64,000 bases of DNA from Zunongwangia sp. ESRF-bin46 (GTDB lineage Bacteria > Bacteroidota > Bacteroidia > Flavobacteriales > Flavobacteriaceae): assembly GCA_002631855.1 (NCBI GenBank), contig NTLF01000014.1, positions 297,951-361,950 on the forward strand, written 5' to 3'. The notes below the pieces were generated by a model. The model was not told the DNA's origin. It saw nothing but the letters and a program-made list of their open reading frames with translations, and ran no database searches. The translations under genes and the position numbers were made by a program. Of the stretch, positions 41,422 through 45,933 are shown in pieces; within the stretch, counting starts at the first letter, position 1, and every line of letters starts with the position of its first letter.

Positions 41422-41835
41422 TTAGTGAGGTAACTTATTCTTTAAAATTCCGTACAAAAATGTACCCAAGAGCGCGCCTACAATCACAACTAATATTGAT
41501 ATATAACCTGACCCAACTAACACATACATAGGGCCCGGACAAGCACCCGCTAAAGCCCAACCTAAGCCAAAAATAATTCCGCCAATTGCATATCTGGCAA
41601 AACTTTTGTTTTTAGGGGTTAACTTCATTTCTTGATTGCCAATCGCCTTGAGATTCTTCTTCTTTATTACTTGAATTCCTATAACTCCCAAAACCAAAGC
41701 AGAACCTATAATTCCGTACATATGGAAAGACCCAAACTGAAACATTTCATAAATTCGAAACCACGAAGCTGCTTCAGATTTGTACATTATAATTCCGAAG
41801 AAAATACCAATACTTAAATAAACTAGCTGTTTCAT
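41422..41835 (-). CDS. YeeE/YedE family sulfur transporter half (PmpB-like)
   Basis: GGIIFGLGWALAGACPGP. Confidence 0.88.
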   Translation of the reverse strand: MKQLVYLSIGIFFGIIMYKSEAASWFRIYEMFQFGSFHMYGIIGSALVLGVIGIQVIKKKNLKAIGNQEMKLTPKNKSFARYAIGGIIFGLGWALAGACPGPMYVLVGSGYISILVVIVGALLGTFLYGILKNKLPH

Positions 41836-41839
41836 ACTT

Positions 41840-42397
41840 TTAAAATATTATGGGGAAAATGGCGTGAATCATTACTAAACCACCAATAAAAAACCCGATT
41901 ACGGCAATTAAAGAAGGCAATTGCAAATTACTCAAGCCTGAAATAGCGTGGCCAGAAGTACATCCGCCTGCATAGCGGGCACCAAAACCTACTAACAAGC
42001 CTCCAATTAATAAAACCCCTAATACAAATGGGTTTGATAATTGTTCGGTTGAAAATAATTCTGGTGGCATGTAAGCTTGACCAGCACTATTAATTTGGTA
42101 ATCATTAGAAAGCTGTTCGGCTATTTCTGGATTGATTTCAACCGTATTATTAGACATAAATTGAGAGGCAATAAAACCACCGATAACGGCACCAACTACA
42201 ACTAATAAATTCCAGCGCTCTTCTTTCCAATTAAATTTGAAAAAATCGGCTACTTTTCCTGCTCCACCTGCCGAACACATGGTTCGTAAGTTTGAAGACA
42301 TGCCAAATTGCTTTCCTGCAAAGAGCAATAAAAACATAACCAAAGCAATTAAAGGGCCGGCGACATACCATGGCCAAGACTCATATATTAAATCCAT
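41840..42397 (-). CDS. YeeE/YedE family sulfur transporter half (PmpA-like)
   Basis: WPWYVAG, LVGFGARYAGGCTSGHAISGL. Confidence 0.9.
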   Translation of the reverse strand: MDLIYESWPWYVAGPLIALVMFLLLFAGKQFGMSSNLRTMCSAGGAGKVADFFKFNWKEERWNLLVVVGAVIGGFIASQFMSNNTVEINPEIAEQLSNDYQINSAGQAYMPPELFSTEQLSNPFVLGVLLIGGLLVGFGARYAGGCTSGHAISGLSNLQLPSLIAVIGFFIGGLVMIHAIFPIIF

Positions 42398-42402
42398 AGA
42401 AT

Positions 42403-43746
42403 TTAGTTTTTAAATTCAGTTACCGCATCACTTAAATCGAATACAGTAGTATTTTTAAGTTCAGTTTCCAGAATACTACTACCAGCTGCACTTCTATAAC
42501 CTCCTGCACAATGAACCACAATAGGCTTTTCCGTTGGAACTTCAGAAACACGTTCTCTCAATTGGTGTAATGGGATCGTCAATGCTGATTCAAAAATCTT
42601 TCCTTCTTCCACTTCACTTTCATTGCGTATATCCACAATTGTAAAGGCTTCTTTATTGTTTTTAAATTCTGAAATATTAAATTCTGATGATTTTTTTAAT
42701 CCTTCATTACTTAATGTTACAACTGCTTTAACTTGCTTTTCATAGCCAATTTTTGCAATCCTGTTGAGTAATGTATTTGCTTCTTCTACGGAATTCACAA
42801 CCACGTAAAATTCTTCTTCCGGTTTAACAATAGAACCTAGCCAAGTTTCAAACTTAGAAGTTTTTGAAGTGGCCATAATATTGATGCTTTCGGGTAGATG
42901 CTTTTTTTTAAAAGTTGCTTCATCGCGTGTATCGATTACTAAAATATCACCTTTCTTTTCAGAAACAGAAAGTTGTAAAGGAATGATGCCTATACTTTCA
43001 GAAAGATTTTTAGCACCCTCTTTATTAATAGCGACATTGTACCCAAAATAATGCGGAATAAAAGGTTGCGAACTCAATAAATGGTTGATAAACTGTTCTT
43101 CTGTTTGATTTTTAAAAGCCCAATTACCGATACGTTCGTTACCTAAAGTACTTGAAGAAGCATCGGCGCTCATTCCTTTTCCGCAAAGAGAACCGGCACC
43201 GTGGGCGGGATAAACATATGCGTTATCTGGTAAGTGCTTGAATTTGGTTTGTATGGTATTAAACATCATCTTAGCTAACTCTTCGCGTTTCGCTTTTAAA
43301 TGACCTGCCTTTTCACGTAAATCTGGACGACCAACATCGCCTACAAATAAAGTATCGCCAGTAAATAAGGCAATATTATCAGCTTCGGTAGCTTGTACGG
43401 TGATACTATCTGGGGAATGCCCCGGTGTGTTAATAGCAGTAAAGGTTATGTTTCCCATTTTCACAGTATCGTCATCATCAAAAGACGTATGCGGATAGTC
43501 TGCAGCTGTTTTTTTGCTTGAGTAAATAGTTGCACCTGTTTCTTTATAGATTTGCATATGAGAACTTACAAAATCGGCGTGCGGATGCGTTTCAAACACG
43601 GCAACAATTTGTGCGTTATTATCTTCGGCAAACCTATAATACTGTGTCGGGTTACGTTCTGGGTCTACTAAAGCCATCTTGCCTTCACTTATAATAGCAT
43701 AGGAATAATGCGAAAGTGGCTTATATTCAAACTGTTTTATTTTCAT
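42403..43746 (-). CDS. Persulfide dioxygenase-rhodanese fusion (CstB-like MBL fold)
   Basis: ETHPHADF, TPGHS, TGDTLF, PAHGAGSLCG, middle Cys-less rhodanese, C-terminal VHCAGGYRS. Confidence 0.9.
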   Translation of the reverse strand: MKIKQFEYKPLSHYSYAIISEGKMALVDPERNPTQYYRFAEDNNAQIVAVFETHPHADFVSSHMQIYKETGATIYSSKKTAADYPHTSFDDDDTVKMGNITFTAINTPGHSPDSITVQATEADNIALFTGDTLFVGDVGRPDLREKAGHLKAKREELAKMMFNTIQTKFKHLPDNAYVYPAHGAGSLCGKGMSADASSSTLGNERIGNWAFKNQTEEQFINHLLSSQPFIPHYFGYNVAINKEGAKNLSESIGIIPLQLSVSEKKGDILVIDTRDEATFKKKHLPESINIMATSKTSKFETWLGSIVKPEEEFYVVVNSVEEANTLLNRIAKIGYEKQVKAVVTLSNEGLKKSSEFNISEFKNNKEAFTIVDIRNESEVEEGKIFESALTIPLHQLRERVSEVPTEKPIVVHCAGGYRSAAGSSILETELKNTTVFDLSDAVTEFKN

Positions 43747-43771
43747 AACACCTATTTTTTAAATTATATAA

Positions 43772-43815
43772 CAAAGATACGCAAGTAGCAAATTACTATC
43801 AGTAACATTGGTTAC
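43772..43815 (-). promoter_or_regulatory. Crp-family site plus -7 box for the PDO-yeeE-yeeE unit
   Basis: GTAACATTGGTTAC (43802-43815, GTA-N8-TAC), 22 nt, TATCTTTG (43779-43772). Confidence 0.72.
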
Positions 43816-43835
43816 CTAGCCAGTAGAAATGTGGT

Positions 43836-44423
43836 TTATTTTTTCTGAAGCATGACAAACAGTTCATTCCCCTTTCTTTCTGGTATCGAATTATGGGCAG
43901 TTTCCATAATCTTTATTTCAAAAAAAGGTGAAAACCGTTTTTTATACTCGGCTTCACTTCCGCCGAAAGGCGGCCCGTCATCAGTTAAGGGAAAGTTGAA
44001 AAGCAGCCCCACTAATTTTCCTTTTGGTTTCAACAACTGATACATTTTTGAAACATACTCGTCACGTAAGGAAGGATTAAGTGCACAAAAGAAGGTTTGT
44101 TCTATAATAAGATCGAATGTTTCTTCTAACTTAAAAAAGTCTTGATTTAGTAATTTTTCAGAAGGAAACGTAGGTACTCTTTTTTTAAAGTTTTGTAGAG
44201 CAGTTTCTGAAACATCTACTACATAGACTTCTGTAAAGCCTTTATTATGAAGGTATTCTGCTTCATATGAATTACCACCTCCAGGAATTAAGATTTTTAA
44301 GCTTTTATTGGTAAGTTGATCAAAATAAGTTTTTAGCGGTGTGGAAACATACCCAATATCCCATTTTGTATCCTTGTTTTTATAACGGTTTTCCCAGTAC
44401 GGTTCATTTAAAGATTCCATCAT
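43836..44423 (-). CDS. TPMT-fold SAM methyltransferase, halide/thiol methyltransferase-like
   Basis: WDIG, ILIPGGGNSYE, DFF, EQTFFCALNPSLR, GPPFG. Confidence 0.85.
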   Translation of the reverse strand: MMESLNEPYWENRYKNKDTKWDIGYVSTPLKTYFDQLTNKSLKILIPGGGNSYEAEYLHNKGFTEVYVVDVSETALQNFKKRVPTFPSEKLLNQDFFKLEETFDLIIEQTFFCALNPSLRDEYVSKMYQLLKPKGKLVGLLFNFPLTDDGPPFGGSEAEYKKRFSPFFEIKIMETAHNSIPERKGNELFVMLQKK

Positions 44424-44426
44424 TTT

Positions 44427-45227
44427 TTATTTAGTGAACTCTTTAAAAACAATATATAAGGCCATCGCCAATACAAACCATCCAAAGCTCTTTTTCAGTT
44501 TTTTACCGTCAATGAACTTATTTAACCAAGTACCTACAAATATTCCAACTACTGAAATGGTTGTGAAAATTAATAGAAAAGTCCAATCTATGTCTAGGTT
44601 TTCAACATCGCCTATAAAACCAATTAACGATTTTATAGCAATAATAAGAAGAGAAGTGGCTACGGCTTTTTTCATGGGTAGTTTTGCCAACAAAACCAAC
44701 GCCGGGATTATGAGAAAACCACCACCAGCACCAACAATCCCGGTTAATAGCCCTACTACAATTCCTTCAATAATTATTAATGGGTAGTTATATACAACTG
44801 TTGTTTCAGAAGTTATTTTTTTACCGTTTGATTTAATCATCGAAATGGCAGCCACAAACATGATTATAGCAAAAAACACCATGATAGCGATGTTTTTTGT
44901 CACTACAAAATCGTTTACTTCAAATAGGTAATCAGGTATTGCTGGTACTAAAAATTTTCGAGTGGCGTAGACAGCTATAAAAGCGGGAATAGCAAAAACG
45001 ATAGCTGTTTTAAAGTCTACCAATCCCTTTTGGATATTTCGAATAGCCCCCACCAAAGCTGAAACACCTACAACAAATAAAGAATAAGCTGTTGCAGTAA
45101 CAGGGTTGACATATAGTAAGTATACAAGCACGGGAACGGTTAAAATTGAACCTCCACCACCTATTAAACCTAAAACAATGCCAATTGCTAAAGCGCCAAC
45201 ATATCCTAAAATTTGAGTGATATCCAT
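44427..45227 (-). CDS. Sulfite exporter TauE/SafE family
   Basis: GLIGGGGSILTVP, GIVGAGGGFLIIPAL, AVATSL. Confidence 0.92.
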   Translation of the reverse strand: MDITQILGYVGALAIGIVLGLIGGGGSILTVPVLVYLLYVNPVTATAYSLFVVGVSALVGAIRNIQKGLVDFKTAIVFAIPAFIAVYATRKFLVPAIPDYLFEVNDFVVTKNIAIMVFFAIIMFVAAISMIKSNGKKITSETTVVYNYPLIIIEGIVVGLLTGIVGAGGGFLIIPALVLLAKLPMKKAVATSLLIIAIKSLIGFIGDVENLDIDWTFLLIFTTISVVGIFVGTWLNKFIDGKKLKKSFGWFVLAMALYIVFKEFTK

Positions 45228-45247
45228 TAAACTGAAATGATTTTAGG

Positions 45248-45291
45248 CAAAAGTAGGATAAATGCTTTTTTACAAACGTATCTTATGTTAC
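45248..45291 (-). promoter_or_regulatory. Crp-family site plus -7 box for the tauE-methyltransferase unit
   Basis: GTATCTTATGTTAC (45278-45291, GTA-N8-TAC), 22 nt, TACTTTTG (45255-45248). Confidence 0.7.
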
Positions 45292-45300
45292 ATATAAAAA

Positions 45301-45933
45301 TCAAATTGCTTGAATTTTTATACTATTTCTTCTCAATTCAATTTTTTTCAATGTTTCTAATTTTTTAAGAAGCCTTGATATTACCACTCTAGAAGTGTTT
45401 AGGTCGTACGCAATTTCTTGATGGGTTGTATGTAAAATTGTATCACCAGAAACTTTAGCCTTTTCTTTTAAGTACTTTAAAAGACGTTCATCCATATTTA
45501 AAAAGGCAATGGTATCTACTGTGTGTAATAATTCTTGTAAACGGTTATGATAGCTCTCAAAAACAAAATTTCTCCAGCTTTTATATTTAGCAGTCCACTC
45601 TTCCATCTTTTGAACAGGAATCATTAAAAGCTCTGTATCTAATTCGGCTACTGCTTTAATTTCACTTTTGGTATGCCCTAAACAGCAAGACATGGTCATG
45701 GCACACGTGTCACCAGTCTCTAAAAAGTACATTAATAACTCATCGCCCTTATCATCTACACGAAGCACTTTAATAGCTCCTGAGAGAAGTAAAGGCATTG
45801 ATTTTACGTAATCGCCAATATTAATTAAGGTTGTGTCTTGTGGAATTTGTTTAAAGACAGCAGTTTGTTCAATTTCTTCTATTAAATCTTTTTCAAAAAT
45901 TGAAGCGTACGTGGGATGAATTGATTGATTCAT
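45301..45933 (-). CDS. Crp/Fnr family transcriptional regulator
   Basis: cNMP-like LLSGAIKV, GDTCAMTMSCC, HTH THQEIAYDLNTSRVVISRLLKKL. Confidence 0.92.
   Translation of the reverse strand: MNQSIHPTYASIFEKDLIEEIEQTAVFKQIPQDTTLINIGDYVKSMPLLLSGAIKVLRVDDKGDELLMYFLETGDTCAMTMSCCLGHTKSEIKAVAELDTELLMIPVQKMEEWTAKYKSWRNFVFESYHNRLQELLHTVDTIAFLNMDERLLKYLKEKAKVSGDTILHTTHQEIAYDLNTSRVVISRLLKKLETLKKIELRRNSIKIQAI

Follow-up and report, generated by a model that had tools for sequence, protein, structure and literature searches.

Analysis of a 64,000-nt stretch of DNA from Zunongwangia sp. ESRF-bin46 (contig NTLF01000014.1, positions 297,951 to 361,950), referred to here as the window, indicated that two sulfur gene units next to a gene for a Crp/Fnr-family regulator (crp) are each preceded by a palindromic box of the form GTAAC-N4-GTTAC, with at most one mismatch, standing exactly 22 nt before a -7 core promoter element TAnnTTTG. 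That these boxes are conserved regulatory sites tied to the adjacent regulator appears well supported by comparative genomics. From the sequence comparisons it is also rather probable that they are operators for this protein acting as a class II activator of sulfide detoxification, with its cysteines reading reactive sulfur.

The cluster is encoded entirely on the minus strand, in the order crp, tauE, a TPMT-type methyltransferase gene, a gene for a persulfide dioxygenase (PDO) fused to rhodanese domains, yeeE and yeeE. The first composite motif, GTAACATAAGATAC-N22-TACTTTTG (45291-45248, minus strand), is found inside the 73-nt gap between crp and tauE; its box begins 10 nt past the crp stop codon and the TauE ATG (45227) follows 20 nt downstream. 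The second, GTAACCAATGTTAC-N22-TATCTTTG (43815-43772, minus strand), is found inside the 89 nt that separate the dioxygenase gene from the methyltransferase gene, with the ATG of the MBL-rhodanese protein (43746) 25 nt downstream. An earlier note on this DNA had reported both as GTA-N8-TAC-N22-TAnnTTTG sites, and both were recovered on the minus strand where it had placed them; the window contains two such sites against a mean of 0.02 in 100 dinucleotide-preserving shuffles, none of which reached 2. The Crp gene is located upstream on the same strand and is not divergent from the boxed unit. GTA-N8-TAC alone was rejected as evidence, with 17 occurrences in the window and 10.4 expected; the signal resides in the fuller box GTAAC-N4-GTTAC together with its fixed distance to the -7 element. 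Box 2 is kept in a second genome of the genus (G075), with a changed spacer, and equivalent second boxes occur in loci L006, L008, L016 and L020. In these four loci the second box stands directly 3' of tauE, about 870 nt past the first box, while in this genus the TPMT-type gene (43836-44423) separates the two.

Alignment of the region after crp from 30 genera revealed that the actual box is (T)GTAAC-N4-GTTAC. In these loci 22 nt separate the box from TAnnTTTG in 26 of the 29 box/-7 pairs and 23 nt in a further two, and the spacers are unrelated to one another. The box is asymmetric in that a T precedes most of the sites inspected (30 genera, uncounted), whereas the mirror A follows only 30% of the 139 perfect sites described below. 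The earlier note had called for a genome scan for the composite motif, and when the whole genome (3.33 Mb, 99.95% complete) was scanned for boxes with no more than one mismatch followed by TAnnTTTG, five were found at a spacing of 22 nt, two at 25 nt and none at the other spacings from 16 to 29 nt; four of the five near-perfect sites at 22 nt are upstream of sulfur genes. Boxes with two mismatches at spacings of 21-23 nt were excluded from this count, being intragenic or followed by a gene with no link to sulfur.

Across 121 genera of the family, 139 perfect composite sites were counted against 1 for the reversed control pattern. When the gap was left free between 10 and 36 nt (27 spacings), 190 matches were obtained, and among the first 150 of them the spacing was 22 nt in 105, 21 nt in 16 and 23 nt in 8, the remaining 24 spacings accounting for 21 altogether; with the reversed control, the 27 spacings together yielded 37. 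According to a logo made from the 139 sites, the spacer has at most 0.13 bits of information per position except at the two bases after the box, so that selection acts only on the box, the distance and the -7 element. The two bases immediately 3' of the box are TG in 35% of these sites. In the window these two bases occupy positions 43800-43801 and 45276-45277, and the third base after the box is G in only 4 of the 139 sites.

The attribution of the box to the adjacent Crp protein, as the earlier note had it, is supported by linkage, co-occurrence and the recognition helix. In 18 of the 30 genera the box comes immediately after crp, starting no more than a few bases from its stop codon. At L031 (3970-3990), L004 and L017 the TAA stop codon of the regulator gene is itself inside the left box arm GTAAC, so that the gene runs into the operator of its downstream neighbour. 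The regulator is present (E at most 1e-20) in 102 of 121 genomes from different genera, and the perfect composite was detected in 75 of these 102 and in none of the 19 that lack the regulator (Fisher p = 6e-10, the genera not being fully independent). The regulator helix T-S-R182-V183-V-I-S186-R187 is invariant in 31 orthologs and aligns with STRVTVTR of NtcA, R182, V183, S186 and R187 corresponding to NtcA R186, V187, T190 and R191. In NtcA-DNA structures these four residues contact bases, and R186 reads the invariant G located 7 bp from the dyad (PMC11850224). The box GTAAC-N4-GTTAC carries its G at this same distance from the dyad, as the NtcA site does. The position of Val183 is occupied by Glu (E181) in CRP and by Pro in HcpR2, a regulator considered further below.

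Membership of the regulator in the Crp/Fnr superfamily is indicated by matches to PF00027 (38.6 bits, cut-off 27.5) and PF13545 (34.2 bits, cut-off 27). Its AlphaFold model has the standard Crp fold (pLDDT 81) and retrieves the structures of CRP, FNR and NtcA at E values of about 1e-11 to 1e-13; the Foldseek search with this model gave family membership and nothing further. The organism was taken to be a Marixanthomonas species of the Flavobacteriaceae, and the protein is 95% identical to its M. ophiurae counterpart.

Start-site maps of Flavobacterium psychrophilum place the sigma-A element TAnnTTTG at -12 to -5 (PMC9723704). With this published position and a 22-nt gap the box spans -48 to -35, from which its centre was computed as -41.5, and transcription is predicted to start near 45243 for tauE-TPMT, with a 5' untranslated region of about 16 nt, and near 43767 for PDO-rhodanese/YeeE. 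Promoters canonically activated by NtcA, which belong to class II, are arranged in this way too (PMC3898017), and the likeness to NtcA class II promoters drawn in the earlier note holds both for the 22-nt distance from the box to the core TA and for the centre at -41.5 (PMC3898017, PMC9723704). The rigid phasing of class II promoters was also found, 105 of the first 150 of the 190 free-gap matches falling at exactly 22 nt and 129 at 21-23 nt. The note had further proposed that the activator replaces the -33 element. This is correct in that a full TTG is absent, the C of GTTAC occupying its first T; it is incomplete in that the TG remnant is retained at 35% of the sites. The remnant is 20 nt upstream of the TA, a position at which the other candidate promoters of the genome show a weak enrichment of TTG; since a -33 TTG would have its end there, the remnant may preserve part of the -33 contact. 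Spacing precise to 1 bp, the lack of a full -33 TTG and the frequent TG remnant argue for activation over repression, and from them we infer that the regulator may activate through contact with RNA polymerase (class II).

Three further near-perfect composites were identified in this genome outside the window. One is found on contig C9 directly 3' of the gene for a paralog 52% identical to the regulator, and is followed by tauE2, PDO/rhodanese2 and a gene for a Blh-type phosphatase-like domain protein. Another, with a perfect box, heads an operon on the same C9 island that encodes a conserved 120-aa protein, DoxX, a DsrE-like protein, a 5'-nucleotidase-like protein and a TlpA-like redoxin, and that adjoins YeeE-like, TolC-like and HlyD genes. 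This second sulfur island extends over 11363-26000 of contig C9 of the genome (G000; locus L031, 3349-15466), and the paralog keeps both the cysteine triad discussed below and the recognition helix; because the two regulators seem to recognise the same DNA, they may cross-talk or form heterodimers.

The third composite precedes a DUF983 gene (G000:C10:21901-22335; locus L032, 2902-3339) and consists of a box with one mismatch exactly 22 nt before TAAATTTG. The product is a small membrane protein with two CxxC pairs. An ortholog with a related box at 21-23 nt, often GTGAC or GTTAC-N4-GTTAC, was found in 13 of the 30 genera, and DUF983 paralogs directly adjoin the regulator gene in four genomes (G006, G014, G016 and G038). 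From these occurrences the DUF983 gene is probably an unrecognised member of the regulon.

In other genera the gene directly after the perfect composite is that of TauE in 11 of 30 sampled loci; further first genes encode PDO-rhodanese or a single rhodanese, YeeE, SulP, a YgaP-like membrane domain, cytochrome bd subunit I, a TolC-like protein or a thioredoxin-like protein. Cytochrome bd is a sulfide-insensitive oxidase. Query sequences for cytochrome bd, the TolC-like and the YgaP-like proteins found no close homologs in this genome, the TolC-like gene of the C9 island notwithstanding. The set of PDO-rhodanese, TauE-like and YeeE-like genes is that placed under CstR, SqrR and BigR in other phyla (PMC13467558; PMC5823870). 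The sulfur theme that the earlier note had seen in the boxed units thus agrees with the content of the regulon, which fits a response to sulfide or reactive sulfur. As the regulon matches known persulfide regulons, sulfide or sulfane sulfur is the most economical signal, and sulfide-derived reactive sulfur would most likely be what the regulator senses.

Alignment of the regulators revealed three cysteines, C77, C83 and C84 (C-x5-CC). All 31 family members compared have them without exception, and most homologs outside the family, in other families and classes of the phylum with identities as low as about 45%, retain them as well. In the HMMER alignment they fall on I70, F76 and E77 of E. coli CRP, inside the phosphate-binding cassette, and the CRP contacts to cAMP, G71/E72 and R82/S83, correspond to A78/M79 and K89/S90 of the regulator. 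Cysteine-sulfur chemistry is the most likely single option for sensing, though we place it somewhat below an even chance.

The mechanism that we infer, for binding, activation and start site as for signal and cysteine chemistry, would run as follows. A dimer of the protein encoded at 45301-45933, and probably its 52%-identical paralog too, would bind the promoter-embedded operators (T)GTAAC-N4-GTTAC. The centre of the box at -41.5 is the position from which Crp/Fnr class II activators contact RNA polymerase, and the box would overlap and largely replace the -33 element. Once switched on, the regulator would drive tauE-TPMT and the persulfide dioxygenase/rhodanese-yeeE-yeeE unit and, elsewhere in the genome, the second tauE-PDO cluster, the DoxX/DsrE-like/5'-nucleotidase-like/TlpA operon and the DUF983 gene. 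Sulfide-derived reactive sulfur would be read by C77, C83 and C84, located in the cassette that in CRP binds the cAMP phosphate.

Several observations weigh against this proposal. No box was found upstream of crp itself in this genome; one is present upstream of the regulator's own gene in L017, L018, L023 and L029. The paralog has an identical helix, which makes the assignment of boxes to one protein or the other ambiguous. Homologs in L073, L074 and L087 are without one or two of the three cysteines and keep the recognition helix. The AlphaFold model has a short helix at 82-84, and the cysteine-bearing segment is its least confident part (pLDDT 58-69), as is expected for an empty ligand site. 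An adjacent cysteine pair with a third cysteine could hold a metal, an iron-sulfur (Fe-S) cluster or haem, and a protein bound over the -33 region could just as well be a repressor. The last point leads to the explanation that the same protein and boxes form a repressor system, the protein sitting over -33 and being released on cysteine modification in the manner of CstR, SqrR and BigR. The well-studied dedicated persulfide sensors are all repressors except FisR (PMC13467558), and the box does overlap the expected -33 position. A repressor, however, has no need for 1-bp precision, yet 105 of the first 150 of the 190 free-gap matches stand at exactly 22 nt; activators of this family canonically bind with their site centred at -41.5 (PMC3898017), and promoters with no full -33 TTG, and with the TG at 35% of sites only, are suggestive of weak basal activity in need of help. 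We therefore regard repression as improbable. That the boxes are bound by some other factor, or match by coincidence, is very unlikely indeed: the genome does encode more distant Crp/Fnr-like candidates (9 at first look), but 139 sites against 1 control match, a composite confined to genomes with the regulator, a box attached to the regulator gene across genera and a recognition helix that fits it all speak for the Cys-bearing protein.

A more serious alternative, although still an unlikely one, is that the protein is an activator as proposed while the triad serves something other than persulfide sensing, such as an Fe-S cluster, haem, a thiophilic metal or metalloid (selenium or tellurium species), thiol/disulfide stress, or a sulfite or thiosulfate anion bound through K89/S90. 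Members of the Crp/Fnr family use Fe-S clusters (FNR), haem (CooA, DNR and HcpR) and disulfides (FLP and CprK). For Fe-S or haem, however, the alignments show no fourth conserved ligand. An anion would be accommodated by K89-S90, the aligned counterpart of the R82-S83 pair with which CRP binds phosphate; the K-S pair never varies within the family but is lost from distant homologs that keep the triad. The regulon also includes a TPMT-type methyltransferase, thioredoxin-like proteins and TolC/HlyD efflux genes, and its TPMT and YedE-like genes would suit the sensing of selenium or tellurium. Against all of these, the core of the regulon in every genus examined is PDO-rhodanese, TauE and YeeE, the signature of sulfide/persulfide regulons (PMC13467558).

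Comparison with characterised proteins indicated that the regulator falls far below the curated models for CRP, NtcA, FNR and others. NtcA belongs to the same superfamily and fold and is the best characterised relative by sequence in the PDB (E = 1e-10); the two share the helix pattern R-V-x-x-S/T-R, the outer box bases (T)GTA...TAC, the 22-nt distance and the centre at -41.5. They differ in that the regulator scores 46 bits against the NtcA equivalog TIGR03697 (cut-off 244.95), its box has the extra fixed bases of GTAAC/GTTAC, the core element is the Bacteroidota TAnnTTTG, three cysteines are present in the pocket, and the regulon concerns sulfur detoxification where that of NtcA concerns nitrogen. 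The effector of NtcA is 2-oxoglutarate and its co-activator is PipX; the pocket of the regulator is assumed not to bind 2-oxoglutarate.

HcpR2 proteins are Crp/Fnr regulators of the hybrid-cluster protein gene (hcp) in Bacteroides, Clostridium and Thermotogales, and their published consensus, GTAACnnnnGTTAC (Rodionov et al. 2005, PMC1274295), matches the box of the regulator in every letter. The HcpR2 helix is VSRPALAR and the Cys triad is absent, whereas the regulator has TSRVVISR. In L122 (3192-3205) and L123 (4067-4080), from two other families of the phylum, a GTAAC-N4-GTTAC box was found beside hcp and an HcpR2-like gene whose product has the helix SRPALAR and no Cys triad, and thus two different helices appear to read one box. 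No hcp was found in this genome at 99.95% completeness. In one family of the phylum (f21) all 25 genomes examined for hcp had it and none of 63 had the Cys-triad regulator, while in the family of this genome (f1) the counts were 0 of 8 for hcp and 169 of 200 for the regulator. An HcpR2 identity was rejected on the absence of hcp here, Val183 in place of Pro, the presence of the triad and the different families of the phylum involved.

FNR has an N-terminal cysteine cluster and a central cysteine for its [4Fe-4S] cluster, and its box is TTGAT-N4-ATCAA; the regulator has no cysteine in residues 1-76, scores 23 bits against the NCBIfam FNR model (cut-off 228) and has a different box. CRP contacts cAMP through E72 and R82, has the helix R-E-x-x-x-R and binds TGTGA-N6-TCACA; in the regulator E72, R82 and E181 are replaced by Met79, Lys89 and Val183, and the score against NF008732 is 56.6 bits (cut-off 266). 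The closest structure is PDB 3DV8, an uncharacterised Crp/Fnr protein of Eubacterium rectale from structural genomics (best match, E = 7e-17, and Foldseek rank 1), with which two of the three cysteines are common (C...SC); identity is 23% and its helix is of the CRP-like R-E type.

With CstR (CsoR fold), SqrR/BigR (ArsR fold) and FisR (a sigma-54 activator) the regulator would share regulon content and the proposed cysteine-based sensing (PMC13467558; PMC5823870). It differs from them in consisting of a cNMP-binding beta-roll and a Crp-type helix-turn-helix with no other domain, in having its cysteines in the ligand-pocket cassette and in being a probable activator working with the housekeeping sigma factor. 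A 2026 review lists CsoR, ArsR and Fis as the only classes of reactive-sulfur sensor (PMC13467558), and a literature search for a Crp-type or flavobacterial sulfide regulator found no description of one.

The coordinates of the features in the window and of the excluded two-mismatch sites are given in the table. The match of the MBL-rhodanese protein (42403..43746) to the NCBIfam model for bifunctional Blh is weak. No terminator-like hairpins were found between the units of the cluster, so that transcription from crp may run on into tauE, and that of the TPMT gene into the PDO gene.

Table. Genes and promoter elements of the sulfur cluster in the window, and two-mismatch boxes excluded from the genome count.
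Feature	Coordinates	Strand	Remarks
Crp/Fnr-family regulator, 210 aa	45301..45933	-	Pfam cNMP_binding + HTH_Crp_2
Box 1, GTAACATAAGATAC	45278..45291	-	One mismatch to GTAAC-N4-GTTAC; predicted -48 to -35 of tauE promoter
-7 core element of tauE-TPMT promoter, TACTTTTG	45248..45255	-	
TauE/SafE-family sulfite or sulfonate exporter	44427..45227	-	Leads unit 1; Pfam PF01925, E = 3e-44
TPMT-family S-methyltransferase	43836..44423	-	Start overlaps tauE stop by 4 nt; Pfam PF05724, E = 1e-28
Box 2, GTAACCAATGTTAC	43802..43815	-	Perfect palindrome arm pair; PDO-rhodanese promoter
-7 core element of PDO-rhodanese/YeeE promoter, TATCTTTG	43772..43779	-	
MBL-fold persulfide-dioxygenase-like domain fused to rhodanese domains (CstB/Blh-like)	42403..43746	-	Leads unit 2; Pfam Lactamase_B + Rhodanese
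YeeE/YedE-family sulfur-transport half protein	41840..42397	-	Pfam PF04143
Second YeeE/YedE-family half protein (DUF6691)	41422..41835	-	Pfam PF04143 + PF20398
Excluded two-mismatch sites	C2:176443, C12:41694, C12:456083, C14:149987, C14:475900, C14:487254, C15:14392, C16:80066		Context inspected for all but C12:41694

The sensing of sulfide and persulfide has so far been explained by CsoR, ArsR and Fis-type folds, with no Crp/Fnr protein among them and none described for Bacteroidota. We tentatively propose that the regulator represents a fourth structural class among the dedicated sensors of reactive sulfur: a class II activator of the Crp/Fnr type whose cyclic-nucleotide phosphate cassette has given way to Cys-x5-Cys-Cys. 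Persulfidation, or a tri- or tetrasulfide bridge within the pocket, would mimic the ligand and switch on sulfide detoxification, and the class would extend across much of Bacteroidota. The system offers an operator with geometry precise to 1 bp, a regulon readable from sequence in hundreds of genera and a sensor pocket with cysteines in place of the cyclic-nucleotide contacts. If the proposal is true, it would rank with the earliest concrete cases of class II activation at the unusual -33/-7 promoters of Bacteroidota, useful for inducible expression tools in this phylum, and in some genera the regulon would add sulfide-insensitive cytochrome bd respiration. Bacteroidota dominate particle-attached marine and gut communities, where sulfide is common.

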